Source: Bacillota bacterium
Lineage (GTDB): Bacteria; Bacillota; Clostridia; Christensenellales; SZUA-584
DNA: 64,000 nucleotides
Reading direction: 5' to 3'
Assembly: GCA_023406895.1 (NCBI GenBank)
Contig: JAEXTV010000023.1
Span: 67,833 to 131,832, forward strand
The notes under the pieces are model-generated. The model saw only the letters and a list, made by a program, of their open reading frames with translations, was not told the origin of the DNA and did not search any database. Every line of letters starts with the position of its first letter. Position 1 is the first letter of the stretch. Below, one piece after another: positions 53,650-63,853 of the stretch. The translations under genes were made by a program, and so were the position numbers.

Positions 53650-53907
53650 CTATTTCACCACCGATTCCTTATATTTTAAACGCGTGGCGTTACCGCCGCG
53701 TATGTGACGTTCGTCCTTGTTTTTTTTGAGCACCTCGGCCACCGCCTTGGCCAGTGCCGGTGAAATGGCGGTCAGGCGTTCGGTTAAGTCCTTATGCACC
53801 GTGCTTTTGCTCGTACCAAAGGTTTTCGCCGCCTGCCGCACCGTGGCACCGCTTTCCAGCACATAGTCCGCAATGCGCTGTACCCTGTCTTCAATGTATT
53901 CCTTCAT
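53650..53907 (-). CDS. spoIIID: stage III sporulation transcriptional regulator SpoIIID
   Basis: MKEYIEDRVQRIADYVLESGATVRQAAKTFGTSKSTVHKDLTERL...HIRGGNATRLKYK closely parallels B. subtilis SpoIIID (..SKSTVHKDLTERL..RGGEATKLKYK). The ORF runs to 54030 and was trimmed. Confidence 0.9.
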   Translation of the reverse strand: MKEYIEDRVQRIADYVLESGATVRQAAKTFGTSKSTVHKDLTERLTAISPALAKAVAEVLKKNKDERHIRGGNATRLKYKESVVK

Positions 53908-54240
53908 ACAATAAGCCCCCTTCGACCATACTTTGTACATGTGTATGTACCTAAGAAAGCTTGTATGTATTACGCCATTAAAAAAACGGCGGCAGTATAC
54001 CGCACTCTCCGCAAATGCGTGAGATGGCAAAGAAATCGACAGGCCGCAGTTATTGAAATATTGTCGATTTTTATATATTTTAGTATTGTTTTATATTTTA
54101 TTATCATATATGATATGATGTGACAGTTATAAATGCCCATATTTTATATAATTATGGCTTTAATTCTATAATGATGCGATTATTGAATTGTTTTGGGCTG
54201 TAAATCCCATATAATAAAAACATACGTTAAGGAGAAAGAT

Positions 54241-57051
54241 ATGAGAAAAAGAGTCGTTTGCCTGCTGATGACGCTTTTGCTGTTGTTGTCGTTCCCTGTT
54301 TCGGCGATGGCGGAAGACGGCAGCGAGAACAACCGGGATGCAGCGAGGCAGGCCGCCACGCCGGACCCCCGCGACATTTATCAGGATTTCATAGACCACC
54401 TGAACGGATCACTTGATACGAGTATTATGCATTCTGAGTCCACTACTGATGGCGTGCCAGTAACCGCTGCCGCCTATGAAGGGGACTGGGGATATTATAT
54501 CAATGACGGCGGAACAGCCACGATCGCGAATTACAGAGGAACAGCATCGTCCGTTATCACGCCGACGACGCTCGGCGGCGTAACGGTGACACAGATCGGC
54601 ACCTACGCATTTTCTGAACAATTCACCGATAACCATACCCTGGTTTCCGTTGAAATTTCCGAAGGCGTAAAACAACTCGGTGACATTGAAGACAAAGGCA
54701 TTTTGTATGGCAATGTTTTTGAATTTTGCGAATCATTAACTTCGGTTAAGCTTCCTTTATCCCTTGAAAAGCTGGGAATTATGTCTTTTATGGATTGTCC
54801 ATCCCTCGCTACAATCACTGTCGCATCTGGCAATACCTATTTTAAAGTGGATGACGGCATTCTGTTCAGCAACGACGACGGCGGTACAACCTTCGACGTG
54901 CTGGAGTTCTATCCTACCTCACAGACTGCGGAAGACTACACAGTACCCGCAGATATCGTAAAAATCGCTCCCTTTGCGATCGAACTCAACGAAAATATTA
55001 AGTCGCTCAGCTTGCCTTCCAGCCTGAGATCATGCGACGATGGCGTTGTCAACATGCCGAATCTGGAGACTTTAGATGTGGCAGACGGCATCACCCGTAT
55101 ATCCGGCTTCATCAATTGCCCAAAACTCAACAAAGTTTCCTTGCCCGATTCTGTGGATACCTACGGCTGGATGTTGTTTGGATATTGCGGCAAGCTAACA
55201 GGATTTGTTCGGACTACTTCCAATTTAAAAAAGATCGAATCCCAAGCATTCTGGCAAAGTGGGTTCACCAGCGTTAATATACCCGCAACTGTTGAAACAA
55301 TCGGCACGGGCGCTTATGGATGTTGTCTTGATTTAACATCTTTCAATGTGAATACCTCAAATACAAAATACAAACATGACATCTACGGCGTGCTGCTCAG
55401 CAAAGACGGCACCGATCTCATTATGTATCCTGCCGGCAAAACCGCAAGCAGCTACACTGTTCCGAACACCGTCGCTACCATATGGAGCTACGCATTTTAC
55501 GCCTCGCTCCTCAATCAAGTATCGCTGCCGAACAGTCTGCAGGGTATCGGCGACTTTGCCTTTGATTTCGGTATCTTATCGAGTGTCGTCATCCCGCAAA
55601 ATGTCAGTTCAATAGGATACTCAGCCTTTAAGTACAATGACTATCTTAAGAAGTGTATCGTATACAGCAATAACGTTGATTACGATTATGATGTATTTTA
55701 CGGGTCACCCTATGTTGTGCTTTACGGCAATGCGGGCTCGACCACGCAGAGTTATGCCTCTGACTATGGCATTCCGTTCGGCACCATCACCACATCCATC
55801 CGGGTTAGCCCTTCCTCAGCGAGAATGGTGGTGGGCACTTTGGGAATGCTGGATATATCCACCACGCCCGCAGGCGGCTATGTGACATGGAGCAGCAATA
55901 ATCCCACCGTGGCCACGGTGGACGCAGACGGTGTGATATCAGCCAAGGCCGTGGGTACCGTAAGAATTACCGCCACAAGCCTTGATCGGTCGGCATCGTG
56001 CACCATCTATGTGGAAGCGCTCAAGCCGGTTGGCATCAGCTGCACCAAAACGGACGCGACCGTATACGGTGCCGCAAACGGCAGCGTGACTGTATCGGCA
56101 TCGGGCGGCAATTCCGGCTACTATGAATATTCCCTCAACAACGGGACAAACTGGCAGGATTCGAATGTGTTCGGCGGTGTTGCCGCAGGCACCTATACCG
56201 CAACCGTGCGCGACCCCTATGTGCCGGAGAATATCGCCACCTGCAGCGTGTCGATCGACCAGCCGAAGTACATGGGCAGCGTTCCGGCCAAAAAAATAGC
56301 GTCCAAAGTGAACGCGGGCAACGCGTTGACCATCGTTCCCCCCGCACCCCCCAAGGGATACACCGTTCAATCGGTCACGTACTCGTCGAGCAATCCCGCC
56401 ATTGCGTCTGTGGATGCGGGCGGCAACGTGACGTTCCTTGCGGGCGGCAAGGTGACGATCATCACGAAGATCGTATCGCAGACGGTGGACAAGAAGGGTA
56501 AGGTCAAGACAAAAACCACCACGGTGAAAAAGTCGATCACCGTCCGTCAGCCGGTTGCGTCGATATCGCTGAACATGACCAATACCACCATCGCGCGGAC
56601 GCAGAAGGTGAAGCTGGGCACAGCCATTGCGCCGGGCACCGCGAGCAACAAAAAGCTCAAATGGACATCGAGCAACCCCAAGGTGGCGGCGGTTTCCAGC
56701 TCGGGCGTCGTCACGGGCAAAGCGGGCGGCACAGCGGTGATCACCTGCACGGCGACGGACGGCAGCGGCAAATCGGCGAGCTGCACCGTCAACGTCACGC
56801 CGATTTATCCGACGGGTATCAAGCTCTCGAAGGCGGCGCTGACGCTGAAAACAGGCAAAACGGGCTCGCTGAAAGCGACGATCGCCCCCAAGAATACTGA
56901 CTTTAAAACGGTGACGTGGGCGAGCAGCAATCCGGGCGTCGTCACGGTGGACGCGAAGGGCAAGCTTAAGGCCGTCGCACCGGGCACAGCCGTGATCACG
57001 GCAACCACGAGCAGCGGCCAATCCGCATCGTGCACAGTGACGGTGCAATAA
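54241..57051 (+). CDS. secreted surface protein: BspA-type leucine-rich repeats, an SprB-like repeat and several Big_2 Ig-like domains
   Basis: Signal peptide MRKRVVCLLMTLLLLLSFPVSAMA after AAGGAGAAAG. Repeated '..IP..V..IG..AF..C..L..V' LRR units. Big_2 units of the form 'W.SSNP.VA.V...G.V.....G.A.ITAT'. Confidence 0.85.
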   Translation: MRKRVVCLLMTLLLLLSFPVSAMAEDGSENNRDAARQAATPDPRDIYQDFIDHLNGSLDTSIMHSESTTDGVPVTAAAYEGDWGYYINDGGTATIANYRGTASSVITPTTLGGVTVTQIGTYAFSEQFTDNHTLVSVEISEGVKQLGDIEDKGILYGNVFEFCESLTSVKLPLSLEKLGIMSFMDCPSLATITVASGNTYFKVDDGILFSNDDGGTTFDVLEFYPTSQTAEDYTVPADIVKIAPFAIELNENIKSLSLPSSLRSCDDGVVNMPNLETLDVADGITRISGFINCPKLNKVSLPDSVDTYGWMLFGYCGKLTGFVRTTSNLKKIESQAFWQSGFTSVNIPATVETIGTGAYGCCLDLTSFNVNTSNTKYKHDIYGVLLSKDGTDLIMYPAGKTASSYTVPNTVATIWSYAFYASLLNQVSLPNSLQGIGDFAFDFGILSSVVIPQNVSSIGYSAFKYNDYLKKCIVYSNNVDYDYDVFYGSPYVVLYGNAGSTTQSYASDYGIPFGTITTSIRVSPSSARMVVGTLGMLDISTTPAGGYVTWSSNNPTVATVDADGVISAKAVGTVRITATSLDRSASCTIYVEALKPVGISCTKTDATVYGAANGSVTVSASGGNSGYYEYSLNNGTNWQDSNVFGGVAAGTYTATVRDPYVPENIATCSVSIDQPKYMGSVPAKKIASKVNAGNALTIVPPAPPKGYTVQSVTYSSSNPAIASVDAGGNVTFLAGGKVTIITKIVSQTVDKKGKVKTKTTTVKKSITVRQPVASISLNMTNTTIARTQKVKLGTAIAPGTASNKKLKWTSSNPKVAAVSSSGVVTGKAGGTAVITCTATDGSGKSASCTVNVTPIYPTGIKLSKAALTLKTGKTGSLKATIAPKNTDFKTVTWASSNPGVVTVDAKGKLKAVAPGTAVITATTSSGQSASCTVTVQ

Positions 57052-57407: not shown

Positions 57408-57446
57408 TAAGAAAATCCCCCGAACTTCAGTTGAAGCCACCGGGGG
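57408..57446 (-). terminator. rho-independent terminator of the SpoIID-cohesin operon
   Basis: Minus strand: CCCCCG-gtggcttcaactgaagtt-CGGGGG followed by ATTTTCTT. Confidence 0.65.
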
Positions 57447-57479
57447 ATGTTGATGTTCTCAGAATATTTGGATAGAGGC

Positions 57480-58718
57480 TTAAACGCGATGATCTGTTTC
57501 ATCTTCCTTTTTCGGTGCCGCGTCATTGCGCTTTTCCCACCGGGCCGCGCGGCGTTTGCTGCGCGACTTTTTCGATGTATACAACACCGCAAGCACAATC
57601 ACCGCCGCAGCCAGCACGGCACATGCCCCGCACAGCGCGTAAAAGAGAGTTTGATCAATCGCGAATCCGCCGATGTCAGCCGGTGCCGAAACGGGTGCCG
57701 ATGATGGCTCCGCGGAAGGCTGTGCAGTCGGCTGCGCCGGTGCCGATAAAGCCGCTCCCTTGTACCGCTGCAGCGATTCATCCTCGGTGCTGAACAGATA
57801 GAACCCCTTTTCGCCCGCCGCGTTGCGCACATAAACGAGGTAAACGGTGCCGTCGGAGCCCTTTTGTGTCCACGCGGGCATCTGCTTCTCTTTCCAGGTC
57901 AGCGTGGTTTCTTCAAACCCTTCGGGCACTGCGATGCCCTCCTCCGGCTTTACGATCGTATAGCTTGCGGATACCGACAGCAGCGTGTAATACGGGAAAA
58001 GCGTATTCTTTTCCTCGTTGTAGATATAATAGCCCGCGTTCTCCCCCGTCTCTTCCGAGAGATACAGCAGCGTTAAATCCTCGCTGTCTGGAATGGCTGC
58101 GCCGCCCACGAATTCGCCTTTGTACGTGACCTGCTTATCCACATACCCGGACGGCAGCGTCAGGCTGCTGAGTGAGCGCCAGATGTACATCTGAGCTGCG
58201 GCGCCTTCCACGTTTTCGGCGGCGACACCCGTTTGCGCGAGGTTGACCGGCGGCACGCTCGGCTCGGTACCGGGCGCGGCCGCATCCGCCGCGGCCACCG
58301 TGATGCTGACGCCCGCCTCCGCCGTTTCAAGCACCTGCTCGTCGTAGCTGAGCACGCTGTCCATCGACACGTTCACAACCGCTTCGCCCTGGCCGATGGC
58401 CGCAAATTTGATGACCGCCGTCAGTGACGACGCACCGCCCTCCTGCGCCGCCACCATGTTGATCGATCCGTCCGACGCGCCGCCGTTGCTGCTGACATAC
58501 GTCAGCAGAGCCGGGTCGTATGTGAAAGAGCCGTCCGCGACGGCGATATGCTCGGCGGACACAACGACGGTGACTGTCACCGTATCACCCACCTTCACCG
58601 AGGTGGCATCCGCTTTCACGGAGATATCGGTTGCCAGGGCGACAACCGGAAAGATAAGCATCAGTATCAGCGCCGGTATCAGCGCGGTGATTCTTTTTAT
58701 TGTCTGTTTTGTTTTCAT
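57480..58718 (-). CDS. membrane-anchored cohesin-domain protein
   Basis: Signal peptide, then a cohesin-like module (VKADATSVKVGDTVTVTVVVSAEHIAVADGSFTYDPALLTYVSS...). Then a middle domain, a Pro/Ala linker, a C-terminal TM segment LFYALCGACAVLAAAVIVLAVLY and a basic tail. Its ATG overlaps the upstream TGA (ATGA at 58715-58718). Confidence 0.7.
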   Translation of the reverse strand: MKTKQTIKRITALIPALILMLIFPVVALATDISVKADATSVKVGDTVTVTVVVSAEHIAVADGSFTYDPALLTYVSSNGGASDGSINMVAAQEGGASSLTAVIKFAAIGQGEAVVNVSMDSVLSYDEQVLETAEAGVSITVAAADAAAPGTEPSVPPVNLAQTGVAAENVEGAAAQMYIWRSLSSLTLPSGYVDKQVTYKGEFVGGAAIPDSEDLTLLYLSEETGENAGYYIYNEEKNTLFPYYTLLSVSASYTIVKPEEGIAVPEGFEETTLTWKEKQMPAWTQKGSDGTVYLVYVRNAAGEKGFYLFSTEDESLQRYKGAALSAPAQPTAQPSAEPSSAPVSAPADIGGFAIDQTLFYALCGACAVLAAAVIVLAVLYTSKKSRSKRRAARWEKRNDAAPKKEDETDHRV

Positions 58719-60475
58719 CAGACACCCCCTGTTTGTTCGATTGAAAGCGCGCCGTGAATGTGTTTGAGCAGGCGCAGCACATCTAGGCTGTCCGCCGTGC
58801 CGTCGTGGTTCACATCCGCCGCTTCAAGATAGATGCCCGCCAGCTTGCCTGTGTTCAGCAGGTGCTGCCGCAGCGCATCGAGGTCGCTCTGGCCGATACT
58901 GCCGTCGCCGTTTACATCGCCGTAAAGCACCACCGGAAGATCGAAATACGAGGTGCCGTCGCCGTACACCGTGCGGACAAAATCGCCCGTCGCGACATCG
59001 CCCTCCGTTTGTTCCGCGCCGGACGACGAAATCACGCTGATGCTGCCGCCTTCCGACGAGAGCCTTGAAAGCAGCTCGCTTGGCGTGGTGCCCGGCTTGA
59101 TGCCGCAGATGCCCGACTCCGCCACGGCGTATTTGTCGCTCGAGAGCTTAGGGGCTGTGGCGTAGCTGCCGATGGTGCACAGCAGCGTATCCGCGTAATA
59201 AAAGCTCAGTATATCGGCGTGGCTTTGGCCGTCGGTGGCGCGCTGCTGAGCGCCGCGCTGACTGAGGCCGATGCCGTGCCCGTAGCGGCGGTTGGTGAGA
59301 AACCAGCCGTCGTAGTCTGTGCCGTTTTTATCGGTGAACACGCCCGGCTCGGCCCCGCGCATGCGAAGCGAGTACTTGGTCGTGTTGAAAATGCCGATCG
59401 GGTGCTCGTCCGTCTTCACGAGGTCATTGAGCGACAGCGTGACCACGAGCTGGCCGGTTTTGCCGTCCGCGCGCGTGACCATCAGCGTGACGTCCGCTTT
59501 GGTATACATGCGGCTCGGCGGGTTGAACTTGGCAGTGTGGGCTTTGATGCGCACGGTGGAAACGAGCGTGACCGGTTCGCCCGCGGCCGCGTCCGCGCCC
59601 TGCTGCAGCATGGTCAGCACCATCGGGTCCATCAGCGGCAGTGTCTGCTTATGGAATTCGGTGGGAACGAAGCTTTTTTCCACGAGGCTGTTTGGGTTTT
59701 GTACGTCATAGATGTCGTCGCGCTGCACGTAATACGGCAAGTCGTTGGCCCACACGTTGCCTGTGAGCTCGGTCTGCCCGCCGTTGCTGGCGGAGTAATA
59801 CGCCTGTATGATATCGCCGTTGTAGGTGAGTATCTGCCCCGCCGTGTCGTCCACGGCGGCGATGGCGCGCGTGTAGACGCTCGCATAGCCGTGGTACACC
59901 TGATCCTCCGAGGTATCGAGGATCTCATAGGCGCGGCTGCGGTATTTGGAACAGTTGGCCACCGCGTAGCCGCGCGCGCAGACGGCCTGCGCCTTGAGTG
60001 ACTCGGACGGGAAGGTGTTGCTCATTTCGTGCGGCACCACGCCGTAAAGATAGTGCTCGATGGGCAGCGTGTTGATGGCGCGGATGCTGCCTTCGAAGAC
60101 GTCGAAGCCCATGTTGCCAAGGTAGGTGCAGGTGCCGTATTTATCGTTCTTTAAGCGGATATAGGCGGAGGTGCCGTTGTAATCGCCGCTCATCAGCGTG
60201 ATGGACGAGGCGGTGAAGGTTTTACCGTTTGAGGTGAGGACGGGTCGGCTGCCCGTCATGGTGATGGTCATTTCGTCGCTGGACAGCTCAAAGGAAGGGT
60301 CTTCCTTGAGGGTATAGCTGCCGATGGCCTCGAACTCCACGGTGGTGCCGCTGACGGAAAGAAGAACGCGGATGTCTGAGTGGAAGGCGGCGGCATGGGC
60401 GCAGGGCACGGCGCTGAACACAAGAATCAGCGCGAGCAGCAGAGAGATGAGAAATGGCTTTTTGTTATGTTTCAT
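58718..60475 (-). CDS. SpoIID/LytB domain protein with a C-terminal type-I dockerin
   Basis: Signal peptide. SpoIID blocks: YLYGVVPHEMSNTFPSESLKAQAVCARGYA, EDQVYHGY, YYSASNGGQTE, GHGIGLSQRGAQ. Dockerin duplicated EF-hand-like segments: DVNGDGSIGQSD and DVNHDGTADSLD. Confidence 0.85.
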   Translation of the reverse strand: MKHNKKPFLISLLLALILVFSAVPCAHAAAFHSDIRVLLSVSGTTVEFEAIGSYTLKEDPSFELSSDEMTITMTGSRPVLTSNGKTFTASSITLMSGDYNGTSAYIRLKNDKYGTCTYLGNMGFDVFEGSIRAINTLPIEHYLYGVVPHEMSNTFPSESLKAQAVCARGYAVANCSKYRSRAYEILDTSEDQVYHGYASVYTRAIAAVDDTAGQILTYNGDIIQAYYSASNGGQTELTGNVWANDLPYYVQRDDIYDVQNPNSLVEKSFVPTEFHKQTLPLMDPMVLTMLQQGADAAAGEPVTLVSTVRIKAHTAKFNPPSRMYTKADVTLMVTRADGKTGQLVVTLSLNDLVKTDEHPIGIFNTTKYSLRMRGAEPGVFTDKNGTDYDGWFLTNRRYGHGIGLSQRGAQQRATDGQSHADILSFYYADTLLCTIGSYATAPKLSSDKYAVAESGICGIKPGTTPSELLSRLSSEGGSISVISSSGAEQTEGDVATGDFVRTVYGDGTSYFDLPVVLYGDVNGDGSIGQSDLDALRQHLLNTGKLAGIYLEAADVNHDGTADSLDVLRLLKHIHGALSIEQTGGV

Positions 60476-60820
60476 AGTGTTTCACCATAAACCGACAGTT
60501 TATACTACGATTCGTCATAACATAATCATACAGTTTGTCCATGGGTTAGTCAAGGCAACGGGGAGGTTGGGGGCAACTTTTACAATTGGGCGGATGAGAG
60601 CAATTTTTTTTGAGGCAATAACTAGCGCTGACTACGGAACTATGGGCGCTGTACCTTTTTATGCTAAATATGAAGGAATTTGCGGAAAAAGGGCGAATAA
60701 TGAAAGCAGTATGGGTTACAATCAGTCTACTGTGTTGGCCTAGAAATTAAACATCTCACTACCTTTGTTATGTAATTTAGAACAGAAAGAAAACAGAATC
60801 CTATAATAAGGAGAGAGTAA

Positions 60821-63800
60821 ATGTCAAAAATTAAAGTTGCCTTTGCACAGATTGATTTCAAACCTGCCTTAATATATAACCAAATTGACTTATTAGTTGA
60901 ACCTAGTGGTGATGAGACCACGACAATATCGCAATTAACTTTTCCAGGGAGTACTGAGTTAAAAAATAATTTAAAAGAAGGATATTTTAATTGGATAAAA
61001 TTAAAAATACTTGCAATTGTTAAGAAAGCAATTGATATTGGCATTAACATTTTAGTTTTCCCCGAGTATTCTATTCCAGCAGAAATATTAAATGAATTGG
61101 CCGTTAAACTTAACGATACCAAATTAATCATAATTGCAGGCACACATATAGTAAAAAATACACTTAGTAATCCGCCGAAAAACTATCCGGATACTAAAAG
61201 CATAATAGGTTGTGCCATGTGTCCAATAATAACTTATAAAGGCGTCAGTGGGTATACATTAAAAACTCATAGAGCAGCACAGGAGATAAACAGTATTTGT
61301 ACTCCGAAACATCCTATACCAAACATTTTTGATATGGGAGATTTCGATATGCAGATAAAAATATGCATTGACGCTATAACGGTAGATCAAGATTTAAAAT
61401 TCACAGACAGAAAAGGGCTAATTGTCATTCCATCATATTCGCAAAATGTAGAGCCTTTTAAAGCCTTGGCAATATTGGCCAAGTATAATGAAATACCTGT
61501 GATTTATGCCAACTGCGCTAGTGCTGGCGGATCAATTATCTCTGGTGCCTTCTCCAAGTACGGAAATCATTGGTTTACTGAAGGTACAACTACGAAGCCT
61601 GTGATTAAGGATATAGAATGCATGGTATCTGTTAATCTAAATTTAGATAATACTGCACAGTTAGTTGGAACAGTAAACACTGAAGAAATTATTAATGTCG
61701 ATAGAGTTATTAATATTTTTTATAACATGGACGAAAAGCATAAAACTATTATCCAATTAATTGATGAGTATTTAGCTAAATTCCCTAATATGGATATACT
61801 TAATATACCGGATATGGGCAATTCATTATTAGGATTAAAACTTCATTTTTTACATATTCAAAAAGATAATGGTTTAATTAGTAAAGCTAGCGTTGAGGAA
61901 ACTTTAGATTATATAAAAATTAACTCTATTTCTTTTAGCCAATTTGTTGTTGACCAAAGCAATTCAGCTTTCAATTATTTGTCATCAAATATTGCTTATT
62001 CAAAAACAGATAATGAATTTTTAAAAAACTTAGGAGCAATAATAAAAAAGATTTCTCCGCAAGATTCACAAGACGAAGGTATATTCGAAGATGACAACTT
62101 GTTTTATGGTCGAGATAATGATGTCGCCAGTTTAAGTGATTTTTTTAACAATGAAAACAATGTTTATCTTATTTATGGACTGCGAGGCTTAGGAAAAACC
62201 AAATTAATAAAAAACATAAGTACCAAAGTTCTTCCCTCACCATCGCCTTGGATTCTTAAAAAAATGGAAATTAGCAAGGGTATTGGTTATGATTATCTTT
62301 TAGATCAATTTATGTACATGCTTAATTTGCCTGATATTGAGCGAAAAGATAAATCGTTAGAAACTATAGTTTGTGAAATCTTTGATATACTGGAGAATCA
62401 AGTACCCACCTCGATAATAATTGAAGATATACATCACTGTACTCAATTTAATGGTGAGTTCTTTGATACCAAAATAAGAGAATTTATGATTTGGTTAATC
62501 AGAAATGTACAAAAATCAAAAAAAGTCAAATTAATAATGACAAGTAATCGCAGAATAGGTGATTTTGATCAACTTATATATAACCCTATAGATATTTCAC
62601 GTTTAAAAGATGGGGATGTTAGATCTATAATAAATTATTGTTATCGTAAAATTAACAATACGACAAAAGTAATAGAAATTAATGATAATATTATAAATAT
62701 AATTTATGGCAATCCACTTGCTGCAATATTGGTTTCTCAATTAATTGACAATGATAAATTGCAAGAGTTTGGAACAAAAAGTGACATCTTTTTAAGATAT
62801 AAAGAACAATTAATTAAAAATTTACTTGGAGAAATAGAATTATCTGACGAAGAAAAACTTGTAATGAAAATATTGTCCGTTTCTAAAACACCCGTAGAGA
62901 TCGATTTCATAGAAAAAAACTATTCTTATCTTATCCCAACAATCGATGCATTAGTTAATAGACTGTTAATAGAAAAAGACGAAACATATATCAAGATGCA
63001 TCCATTATTTCAAGAATACTACTATGATTCTTTAACTTTAAAAGATCGTTCAGATCATCATAAGAAGTTAGCCACTTACTATGAAAAAATATATCTAAAA
63101 CAAAGAGCAAAAAAAGTCAATCCATTATTACTTTCAAATATTGTTTTCCATTATGCTGGTAGTCTTAAACTTGATAAGGTACATGAATATAAGGCAAAAT
63201 ATATTGATGAGCTAGGGCCAATAGCAGATCGCTTATATAAAGATAAGAATTATCAAGATGCAGTTAATTATTACCGATTAATTTTCGATACTATTGGAAA
63301 ACAGCGAACGGATGTATTAATTAAGATGGCAAAATGTTATGTCTGTTGTAGCGAAATTGATAACGCCGAAAAGTTTTTTAAATTAGCTATTATGCAAAAT
63401 CCACGTGGAGCTTATTTATGGGCTCAATTCGCAATAGCTTTAGCTTGTAAGAATAATTATTTATCGAAAGCAAAAGAATATTCAGATGAAGCGGAAAGAA
63501 TATATAGAAAATACGGAAATACTTTGCGTTGGGAACTTGCAAAAATAAAATTCGCTCAAGCACGTGCTTGGCGTTTTGACAACCCAGAAAAAGCAGCCAT
63601 TTTATTCGATGAAGCTGTTACATTGGATCCAACAAATTGCTATTATCTTTGCATGTATGCAACTTATTTATTTCATATGTCAGACAGTCCCAAGGCTAAA
63701 TCAATATTTGATAAAGCTAACGATATTAACCCAGATGACCCACATGTTATTAGATTAAAATTAAAATTCGGAGTGGACGAATGTGATGAAAAAGAATTAA

Positions 63801-63853
63801 TTAATGAAGAATATGATGAGGAAACCGATGATGACGTCAATTTTGCTGGTTAA
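60821..63853 (+). CDS. CN-hydrolase (nitrilase superfamily) - NB-ARC/STAND NTPase - TPR protein; candidate NLR/Avs-like defence protein
   Basis: 1010 aa after AAGGAGAGAG. Nitrilase triad motifs: LVFPE82, LK148THR, KIC182ID. P-loop GLRGLGK459T, Walker B SIIIED536, GNPLA630-634, KMHP725-728. C-terminal TPR-like repeats and an acidic tail. The gene is strongly AT-rich relative to its flanks. Confidence 0.8.
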   Translation: MSKIKVAFAQIDFKPALIYNQIDLLVEPSGDETTTISQLTFPGSTELKNNLKEGYFNWIKLKILAIVKKAIDIGINILVFPEYSIPAEILNELAVKLNDTKLIIIAGTHIVKNTLSNPPKNYPDTKSIIGCAMCPIITYKGVSGYTLKTHRAAQEINSICTPKHPIPNIFDMGDFDMQIKICIDAITVDQDLKFTDRKGLIVIPSYSQNVEPFKALAILAKYNEIPVIYANCASAGGSIISGAFSKYGNHWFTEGTTTKPVIKDIECMVSVNLNLDNTAQLVGTVNTEEIINVDRVINIFYNMDEKHKTIIQLIDEYLAKFPNMDILNIPDMGNSLLGLKLHFLHIQKDNGLISKASVEETLDYIKINSISFSQFVVDQSNSAFNYLSSNIAYSKTDNEFLKNLGAIIKKISPQDSQDEGIFEDDNLFYGRDNDVASLSDFFNNENNVYLIYGLRGLGKTKLIKNISTKVLPSPSPWILKKMEISKGIGYDYLLDQFMYMLNLPDIERKDKSLETIVCEIFDILENQVPTSIIIEDIHHCTQFNGEFFDTKIREFMIWLIRNVQKSKKVKLIMTSNRRIGDFDQLIYNPIDISRLKDGDVRSIINYCYRKINNTTKVIEINDNIINIIYGNPLAAILVSQLIDNDKLQEFGTKSDIFLRYKEQLIKNLLGEIELSDEEKLVMKILSVSKTPVEIDFIEKNYSYLIPTIDALVNRLLIEKDETYIKMHPLFQEYYYDSLTLKDRSDHHKKLATYYEKIYLKQRAKKVNPLLLSNIVFHYAGSLKLDKVHEYKAKYIDELGPIADRLYKDKNYQDAVNYYRLIFDTIGKQRTDVLIKMAKCYVCCSEIDNAEKFFKLAIMQNPRGAYLWAQFAIALACKNNYLSKAKEYSDEAERIYRKYGNTLRWELAKIKFAQARAWRFDNPEKAAILFDEAVTLDPTNCYYLCMYATYLFHMSDSPKAKSIFDKANDINPDDPHVIRLKLKFGVDECDEKELINEEYDEETDDDVNFAG

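Follow-up and report, generated by a model that had tools for sequence, protein, structure and literature searches.

The window analyzed here is a 64,000-nucleotide stretch of DNA from a Bacillota bacterium of the order Christensenellales (lineage SZUA-584; GenBank assembly GCA_023406895.1, contig JAEXTV010000023.1, positions 67,833 to 131,832 of the forward strand). Its minus strand carries two adjacent open reading frames (ORFs): gene 1, which encodes a secreted SpoIID/LytB-family enzyme ending in a dockerin, and gene 2, which encodes a membrane-anchored protein with a single cohesin. An earlier reading of the same sequence (the original prediction) had taken the two for a dedicated, non-cellulosomal docking unit for a cell-wall enzyme. 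The features of the pair are given below in the direction of transcription, with nucleotides numbered in the window and residues in each product.

60525..60553, minus strand: predicted sigma-70/sigma-A-like promoter TTGACT-17-TATGAT, ~50 nt upstream of the gene 1 start codon (consensus match)
58718..60475, minus strand: gene 1, secreted SpoIID/LytB-family enzyme with a C-terminal dockerin, 585 residues (ORF, Pfam and NCBIfam domains, full-length orthologues in 59 loci)
60392..60475, minus strand: gene 1 signal peptide, residues 1-28, ending PCAHA/AAF, where the slash marks the predicted cleavage site (read from the sequence)
59180..60091, minus strand: SpoIID/LytB catalytic domain, residues 129-432 (TIGR02669 match)
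58931..59155, minus strand: small beta "X" module before the dockerin, residues 441-515 (resembles, with the dockerin, the C-terminal part of a GH73-like hydrolase from Lachnospiraceae)
58757..58924, minus strand: type-I-like dockerin, residues 518-573, with two mutually different (asymmetric) Ca-loop/helix segments (PF00404, PDB matches, motif kept in orthologues)
57480..58718, minus strand: gene 2, membrane-anchored single-cohesin protein, 412 residues (ORF, junction, ~95 homologue clusters)
58284..58631, minus strand: cohesin module, residues 30-145 (PF00963, AlphaFold2 model, Foldseek)
57759..58241, minus strand: conserved beta-rich middle domain, residues 160-320, with hairpin motifs GYYIY (residue 229) and GFYLF (residue 305) (AlphaFold2, alignment)
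57657..57752, minus strand: Pro/Ala-rich disordered stalk, residues 323-354 (model confidence below 50, sequence)
57483..57647, minus strand: transmembrane helix (residues 358-380) and basic cytoplasmic tail (residues 381-412) (AlphaFold2 helix at residues 356-399, sequence)
57409..57448, minus strand: intrinsic-terminator-like hairpin followed by UUUUCUU, 30 nt past the gene 2 stop (RNA fold)

The two ORFs are closely joined. The stop codon of gene 1 and the start codon of gene 2 have 1 nt in common (GTC TGATG AAA), and a Shine-Dalgarno sequence (AGGGGG) lies 8 nt upstream. The 4-nt ATGA overlap originally described here was not found, the actual overlap being the single nucleotide within TGATG, although an ATGA overlap is nonetheless seen at 18 of 45 orthologous loci. 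Upstream of gene 1, a consensus scan scored TTGACT-17-TATGAT with 10 of 12 matches, and 29 of the 42 upstream regions taken from orthologous loci carried a sigma-A-type box (at least 10 of 12 matches, nearly always with a 17-nt spacer), compared with 1.4 ± 1.1 in shuffles. The hairpin downstream of gene 2 has a folding energy of -20.7 kcal/mol (z = -3.4), equalled by 0 of 200 shuffles. As part of the explanation developed below, and with the same moderate confidence, we regard the pair as a self-contained, translationally coupled bicistronic operon that has a predicted sigma-A-type promoter and a terminator of its own.

The gene 1 product starts with a signal peptide and, on reading its sequence, has neither a lipobox nor an N-terminal transmembrane anchor. 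Pfam SpoIID (PF08486) matched residues 129-218 with 94.8 bits (cut-off 23), and the NCBIfam SpoIID_LytB domain (TIGR02669) matched residues 133-432 with 203.6 bits (cut-off 83.3); relative to solved SpoIID structures, the catalytic domain carries an insert of ~110 residues (278-388). In phmmer alignments with PDB entries 4rwr, 5i1t, and 5txu, Glu-150 (E150, in the motif PHEMS of the stretch VVPHEMS) aligned without gaps with position 101 of 5txu and with the equivalent Glu of 4rwr. From knowledge of the family, we take E101 (5txu numbering) to be the catalytic Glu of Clostridioides difficile SpoIID. The catalytic Glu is kept in the gene 1 product as E150, and the protein is predicted to be a glycan-strand-cleaving enzyme of the lytic transglycosylase type. 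At the C terminus, Pfam Dockerin_1 (PF00404) matched residues 518-573 with 52.9 bits (cut-off 22.9), covering positions 1-56 of the 57-position profile, and the solved type I dockerins 3ul4, 1daq, 2ccl, and 1ohz were matched by phmmer. The duplicated 22-residue segment of type I dockerins is present, and both EF-hand-like Ca loops, DVNGDGSIGQSD (residues 520-531) and DVNHDGTADSLD (residues 554-565), are intact, with D1, N3, D5, and D12 in each.

The gene 2 product also begins with a signal peptide, which is followed by a match to Pfam Cohesin (PF00963) at residues 33-136 (27.0 bits, cut-off 24.1). The same family was matched in each of 41 of 41 aligned homologues (best expect value (E) 2e-7). 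An AlphaFold2 model, built from the alignment of these 41 homologues, has a predicted local distance difference test score (pLDDT) above 90 for residues 30-145, and the best Foldseek matches of this model in the PDB were all cohesins (2w1n, 2vo8, 2jh2, 6kgf, 1qzn, and 2xdh). Three of them (2w1n, 2vo8, and 2jh2) are non-cellulosomal cohesins of Clostridium perfringens, 6kgf is CohA2 of Clostridium acetobutylicum, 2xdh is a non-cellulosomal cohesin of Archaeoglobus fulgidus, and type II cohesins are also represented. Single-cohesin PDB entries gave target-normalized template modeling scores of 0.58-0.69 with a root mean square deviation of 3.5-4.5 Å. The model, the fold search, and the Pfam matches in 41 of 41 homologues agree that the N-terminal module of gene 2, on whose fold the original prediction depends, adopts a cohesin fold as modelled.

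The remainder of the gene 2 product was modelled as a second confident beta domain (residues 165-320, pLDDT ~90), a stalk, and a helix. The middle domain contains many residues that are invariant and aromatic in the 41-homologue alignment; it had no Pfam match even at E ≤ 1 across the 41 members and no PDB sequence match, and the Foldseek run on the whole model was dominated by the cohesin module. One might speculate that this aromatic-rich domain binds glycan or modulates the enzyme. The basic tail starts KSRSKRRAARWEKR, and by the positive-inside rule it would lie in the cytoplasm behind one transmembrane pass; neither an LPXTG motif nor an SLH (S-layer homology) domain was found in the protein. 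The two architectures outlined in the original prediction were recovered in all their parts: for gene 1, a secreted protein with the SpoIID/LytB domain and the duplicated dockerin with both loops quoted there; for gene 2, the signal peptide, the cohesin-like beta-module, the middle domain with two G(Y/F)Y(I/L)(Y/F) repeats, the Pro/Ala linker, the transmembrane helix, and the basic tail. The Pfam matches it had proposed to look for (Cohesin, Dockerin_1, and SpoIID) all exceed their curated cut-offs.

Homologues of gene 2 form ~95 clusters, and we examined their loci in three sets: 3 metagenome contigs, 11 species-representative genomes, and 46 orthologous loci found by scanning 185,579 species genomes. 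A SpoIID/LytB-dockerin orthologue lay directly upstream of the anchor gene, on the same strand, at 59 of 60 loci (14 of 14 in the first two sets and 45 of 46 in the third), and the sole locus without one is cut by the end of its contig. Because the three sets probably share some genomes, the distinct genomes carrying the pair number fewer than 60. The intergenic distance at orthologous loci varies between -23 and +14 nt. All hosts are metagenome-assembled genomes of uncultured bacteria and belong to the Christensenellaceae/Christensenellales, Oscillospiraceae, Acutalibacteraceae, and Feifaniaceae. Outside the genus of the window's host, and in 4 of the 11 pair-bearing genomes within it, the genes flanking the pair are unrelated, and the two-gene unit alone is common to the loci. 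The pair is genuine and conserved as a bicistronic unit. Within the host genome itself (3.36 Mb, 98% complete), Pfam recognizes one cohesin and four dockerins, and the association goes beyond chance because the only cohesin gene directly adjoins a gene for one of the four dockerins.

A natural exchange of enzymes shows which part of gene 1 belongs with the anchor. At five Lachnospiraceae loci, we found a distant homologue of the anchor (26-29% identity) consisting of a cohesin, a cadherin-like domain, the same middle domain (matching residues 178-319 of the query), and a transmembrane helix. The gene upstream of it shares with gene 1 only the C-terminal X-module and dockerin (39% identity, E 3e-19); its N-terminal part is an SH3_3 domain and a GH73-like glucosaminidase (PDB matches 5wqw and AtlE, 4pi7), an unrelated catalytic domain. 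The enzyme has been swapped while the X-module-dockerin (X-Doc) tail and the anchor stay; the anchor thus travels with the docking tail and not with the enzyme. We infer from the synteny and from these domain-swap relatives that the dockerin and cohesin of the pair probably bind each other. A further arrangement was seen in another family of the order (G026:C2:223467-227283), where a pair of anchor homologues in tandem (34% and 29% identity) lies downstream of one SpoIID-like dockerin gene, an arrangement that suggests a duplication of the anchor.

Taken together, these data favor, with moderate confidence, an explanation in which the pair is an accessory vegetative unit and a cohesin-dockerin tether keeps a wall enzyme on the surface of its producer. 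The operon would make enzyme and anchor as a 1:1 pair. The gene 1 enzyme would be exported by Sec without a membrane anchor of its own, ending in the X-module and dockerin, and gene 2 would form a type-I membrane protein, with its basic tail in the cytoplasm, one transmembrane helix, and, on the outer side of the membrane, a stalk of ~35 residues, the beta domain, and the single cohesin. Ca2+-dependent capture of the dockerin by this cohesin would keep the complex close to the membrane, on the inner side of the wall, and restrict the enzyme to the wall of its producer, where glycan cleavage of the SpoIID/LytB type could remodel its peptidoglycan in vegetative wall remodelling, turnover, or cell separation. 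The central claim of the original prediction, that of a dedicated non-cellulosomal docking unit, is upheld by the cohesin fold, by the synteny at 59 of 60 loci, and by a dockerin type unlike that of the other three dockerins of the genome.

Several observations weigh against this explanation. The Cohesin match of the gene 2 product stands just 3 bits above the Pfam cut-off, and a profile search of PDB sequences with the gene 2 family gave marginal cohesin matches (E 0.07-0.4). In a test for dockerin-cohesin co-variation beyond phylogeny, the identities of the individual domains fall in step across 42 orthologous pairs, with no sign of cassette swapping, and the partial correlation between dockerin and cohesin (0.32) is no higher than that between other domain pairs. 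SpoIID-type enzymes act on amidase-denuded glycan, yet no amidase is encoded in the operon. The promoter calls that bear on the vegetative timing are consensus matches. Finally, spoIIID lies 0.24-5 kb downstream of the pair, on the same strand, in 7 of the 11 pair-bearing genus genomes.

The last of these points, together with the SpoIID/LytB catalytic domain of gene 1 and the full sporulation gene set of the host, would speak for an accessory role in sporulation, in which the pair would add a further membrane-tethered SpoIID-like activity in engulfment, cortex maturation, mother-cell lysis, or germination. In the window itself spoIIID was confirmed ~3.5 kb downstream of the pair (TIGR02844, 117.6 bits, cut-off 111.5):

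53650-54030, minus strand: spoIIID (TIGR02844)

Its longest ORF has 126 residues and the SpoIIID model starts at residue 43, so that translation probably begins instead at the ATG near 53907, which would give a protein of ~85 residues as in relatives. Other families of the order have spoIID and a membrane protein in the position upstream of spoIIID: a sister-family locus (L078; G025:C8:45000-56000) keeps a classical murA-spoIID-membrane protein-...-spoIIID-mreB cluster. In the genus of the window's host this cluster is split, with spoIID on contig C14 and spoIIID on contig C31 beside the pair.

The sporulation role that the original prediction drew from the proximity of spoIIID nevertheless lacks support, and we consider this alternative unlikely. 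The gene 1 product failed the equivalog model for stage II sporulation protein D (TIGR02870) with 135.7 bits against a cut-off of 234.75, whereas a canonical SpoIID with its own transmembrane anchor (322.4 bits) is encoded at C14:29005-30003 in a murA-spoIID-membrane protein cluster. Gene 1 differs from a bona fide spoIID in lying outside such a cluster and in encoding a cleavable signal peptide (AHA/A) in place of an N-terminal anchor; two SpoIIP genes, SpoIIM, and SpoIVA are located elsewhere in the genome. Canonical SpoIID is present in 22 of 22 genus genomes but the pair in only 11, and the 11 genomes without it all have spoIID and nearly all have spoIIID. The conserved upstream box is, by consensus match, of the sigma-A type and not of the sigma-E/K/F/G type, and the terminator-like hairpin separates the pair from the downstream genes.

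The linkage to spoIIID itself was not seen outside the genus by tblastn. Within the genus, one genome (G007) has the order ALDH (aldehyde dehydrogenase)-[pair]-spoIIID-membrane proteins-epimerases and another (G014) the order ALDH-spoIIID-...-epimerases. The proximity of spoIIID is a presence/absence polymorphism (indel) of the pair at one fixed site in the genus, and from this comparison we take the linkage to be a matter of position, inherited within a variable locus, and not of co-regulation. Most likely the pair is an accessory trait and not part of the engulfment machine. In the window, the ALDH/spoIIID site has additionally gained two genes. One of them, at 54193-57051 on the plus strand, encodes a 952-residue secreted surface protein of BspA-type leucine-rich repeats (LRR), SprB, and four Big_2 domains, with neither a dockerin nor another anchor module; inserted in the opposite orientation, it parts the pair from spoIIID, whereas in G007 these two lie only ~260 nt apart. 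The other, a STAND NTPase gene of 30% guanine-plus-cytosine (GC) content, is described below.

Since the gene 2 product holds the only Pfam-recognizable cohesin of the genome against four dockerins, it might instead be a general anchor that receives all four dockerin proteins of the cell and has no dedicated partner. The other three dockerins sit on an LRR-Big_2-dockerin-NlpC/P60 protein, on a second SpoIID/LytB protein with an internal dockerin, and on an S8 protease, which brings the dockerin cargo of the genome to two SpoIID/LytB proteins, an S8 protease, and an NlpC/P60 protein; related genomes have 1-8 dockerins each. The dockerin of gene 1 is asymmetric (QS..RQ and SL..LK), a type kept in its orthologues and always adjacent to an anchor of the gene 2 type, whereas the other three are of a different, symmetric type (ISDYTxxRLxILGLK). 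Five genus genomes that have neither the pair nor any Pfam cohesin still have dockerins of the ISDYTxxRLxILGLK type, each beside a homologue of a second anchor (anchor-2). Because the other dockerin type persists in these cohesin-less genomes beside the second anchor, we favor a one-to-one partnership of the gene 1 dockerin with the gene 2 cohesin, and we give the general anchor a low probability, even though a fold search of anchor-2, the alternative candidate receptor, showed no cohesin match.

In the host genome, a second locus outside the window (G000:C36 ~94273-99382; loci L003 and L004, e.g. L004:1682-2914) encodes, in this order, the SpoIID/LytB protein with the internal dockerin, the S8 protease-Big_2-dockerin protein, and anchor-2 (410 residues), whose gene overlaps the preceding one by 8 nt. 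The layout of anchor-2 resembles that of the gene 2 product, with a signal peptide, a beta-sandwich, a second domain, a Pro-rich stalk, a transmembrane helix, and a basic tail. It had no Pfam match, BLASTP and phmmer found no similarity to the gene 2 product, and hhalign paired only the signal peptide and first strand of the two. Foldseek matched the anchor-2 model to generic Ig/MG-like sandwiches and to no cohesin, so the idea that anchor-2 is a cryptic cohesin is unsupported by its fold and has the gene context as its sole basis. Homologues of anchor-2 form ~80 clusters; besides the five genus genomes, they follow dockerin genes in two further loci (L021 and L022), those of L021 encoding SpoIID-dockerin-SH3, dockerin-Amidase_3, and LRR-dockerin-NlpC/P60 proteins. 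The anchor-2 family could be a candidate new class of dockerin receptor.

It may also be that the two proteins of the pair do not dock at all. They could cooperate in another way, for example through regulation or inhibition of the enzyme by the middle domain, or the cohesin-like module could bind a wall polymer and the dockerin find its partner on another cell. The marginal Cohesin score and the missing co-variation signal would fit such a reading, as would the middle domain of the anchor, which is large, conserved, and rich in aromatic residues. The dockerin, however, has two intact Ca loops, the confident model of the cohesin fold matches cohesins of the dockerin-binding kind, and the X-Doc tail is precisely what stays with the anchor when the enzyme is swapped. 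We therefore think it improbable that docking plays no part. Least plausible is a weapon, a surface-displayed muralytic enzyme aimed at neighbouring bacteria, given that no immunity gene is present, that the stalk is short (~35 residues) and the enzyme would therefore stay near the producer's membrane, and that SpoIID-type enzymes, from what is known of the family, need amidase-denuded strands and would therefore be poor stand-alone lysins. The unit is indeed accessory and patchy, in a variable locus beside the low-GC STAND NTPase gene, and dockerin-linked lysozyme-like modules, noted as dockerin-lysozyme fusions in the rumen, possibly target bacterial peptidoglycan (PMC6487960).

We return to the tether as the preferred explanation, in which the pair has no part in cellulose breakdown. 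No glycoside hydrolase or scaffoldin was found in the ORF and Pfam listing of the window, in agreement with the original prediction, and the genome, with one cohesin and four dockerins in 3.36 Mb, has neither the multi-cohesin scaffoldin nor the many dockerin-bearing carbohydrate-active enzymes that define a cellulosome. The pair is unrelated to cellulose breakdown and is non-cellulosomal. Directly upstream of it, in divergent orientation, lies the STAND NTPase gene (60821-63853, plus strand), which encodes 1010 residues with an nSTAND6/NB-ARC-like P-loop and tetratricopeptide (TPR) repeats; at ~30% GC, against 50% for the genome, it has the appearance of a defence-type gene that was inserted here.

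The base composition of the pair itself is also unusual, its GC content of 60.1% (genome, 50.3%) placing it in the top 0.4% of 3-kb windows. We considered this as a sign of horizontal transfer and dropped the idea: in 37 of 38 orthologous loci the pair exceeds its flanks in GC content, by a mean of 6.6 points, and its GC content tracks that of the host. We do not claim transfer. The excess looks compositional and may stem from the amino-acid make-up of these Ala/Gly/Pro-rich secreted proteins or from their residence in AT-rich variable loci.

The control of autolysins is a central problem of the Gram-positive wall, and the known solutions are transmembrane anchors, wall-binding repeats, FtsEX-type activators, and the SpoIIM scaffold. 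If our explanation is correct, a cohesin-dockerin plug that holds a peptidoglycan-cleaving enzyme at the membrane of its producer would be a further solution, and cohesin-dockerin modules would gain a function wholly apart from polysaccharide degradation. We put forward, tentatively, the wider possibility that Clostridia (Christensenellales, Oscillospirales, and Lachnospirales) have a general and so far undescribed dockerin "plug-in" system, in which enzymes of the lytic transglycosylase, amidase, endopeptidase, glucosaminidase, and protease types are held on dedicated single-pass anchors encoded just downstream; such a plug-in autolysin system would be a vegetative analogue of the SpoIID-SpoIIP-SpoIIM (DMP) engulfment complex. 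The small, self-contained pair could double as an orthogonal surface-display module. The analysis also bears on metagenome surveys in which every dockerin or cohesin is scored as a "cellulosome component" (PMC10266427 is an example).

Cohesin-dockerin pairs that work outside cellulosomes are already well established. The best structural matches of the gene 2 cohesin are the non-cellulosomal modules of C. perfringens glycoside hydrolases (PDB 2w1n, 2vo8, 2jh2, and 2o4e), where secreted enzymes are likewise assembled by cohesin and dockerin outside a cellulosome. Those modules are carried by large secreted toxin and glycosidase proteins that bind each other; the window pair has instead a single cohesin on a dedicated transmembrane anchor, in one operon with its sole partner, and a cargo predicted to act on the cell's own peptidoglycan. 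In cellulosomes, anchoring scaffoldins such as the SLH-anchored SdbA and OlpB of Clostridium thermocellum and the sortase-anchored ScaE of Ruminococcus flavefaciens also present a cell-bound cohesin that receives a dockerin-bearing partner. The window anchor differs from them in its C-terminal transmembrane helix and in having neither SLH nor LPXTG, no scaffoldin, no carbohydrate-binding module, and no plant-polysaccharide enzyme, with four dockerins and one cohesin in the genome, not dozens.

Two further published cases resemble the pair. In Ruminococcus bicirculans, a non-cellulolytic species of the Clostridia, a single cohesin and a single dockerin tied to a GH73 enzyme were mentioned in passing (PMC4611034), and this minimal one-cohesin/one-dockerin set with a peptidoglycan hydrolase resembles the window pair, the more so as the Lachnospiraceae relatives of the pair bear a GH73-like enzyme on the same X-Doc tail. 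The likeness is one of description, and the catalytic domain in the window is of the SpoIID/LytB family. In single-cell genomes of Christensenellales from the cockroach gut, dockerin genes that map to KEGG K06381 (SpoIID) are transcribed at low levels in vivo, with a cohesin in one of the genomes (PMC10266427). These genes are of the same type and from the same order as gene 1; they were filed as cellulosome components, and the operon, the membrane anchor, and the peptidoglycan context were not described. Literature searches on dockerins with SpoIID, peptidoglycan hydrolases, lytic transglycosylases, or Christensenellaceae, on non-cellulosomal cohesins and dockerins, and on the R. bicirculans GH73 enzyme found no description of the operon, the transmembrane anchor, or its conservation.

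The DMP complex offers a functional parallel. There too a membrane protein localizes a wall-degrading enzyme, one of the SpoIID/LytB family with the conserved Glu, to the outer side of the membrane. Canonical SpoIID, however, has its own N-terminal transmembrane segment, passes TIGR02870, and is controlled by sigma-E, whereas the window enzyme has a cleavable signal peptide, fails TIGR02870, has a sigma-A-like promoter, and is dispensable in the genus, its tether being, as we infer, a cohesin-dockerin pair. By analogy, the proposed tether would work like that of SpoIID to SpoIIM, but through a plug of the cellulosome type.

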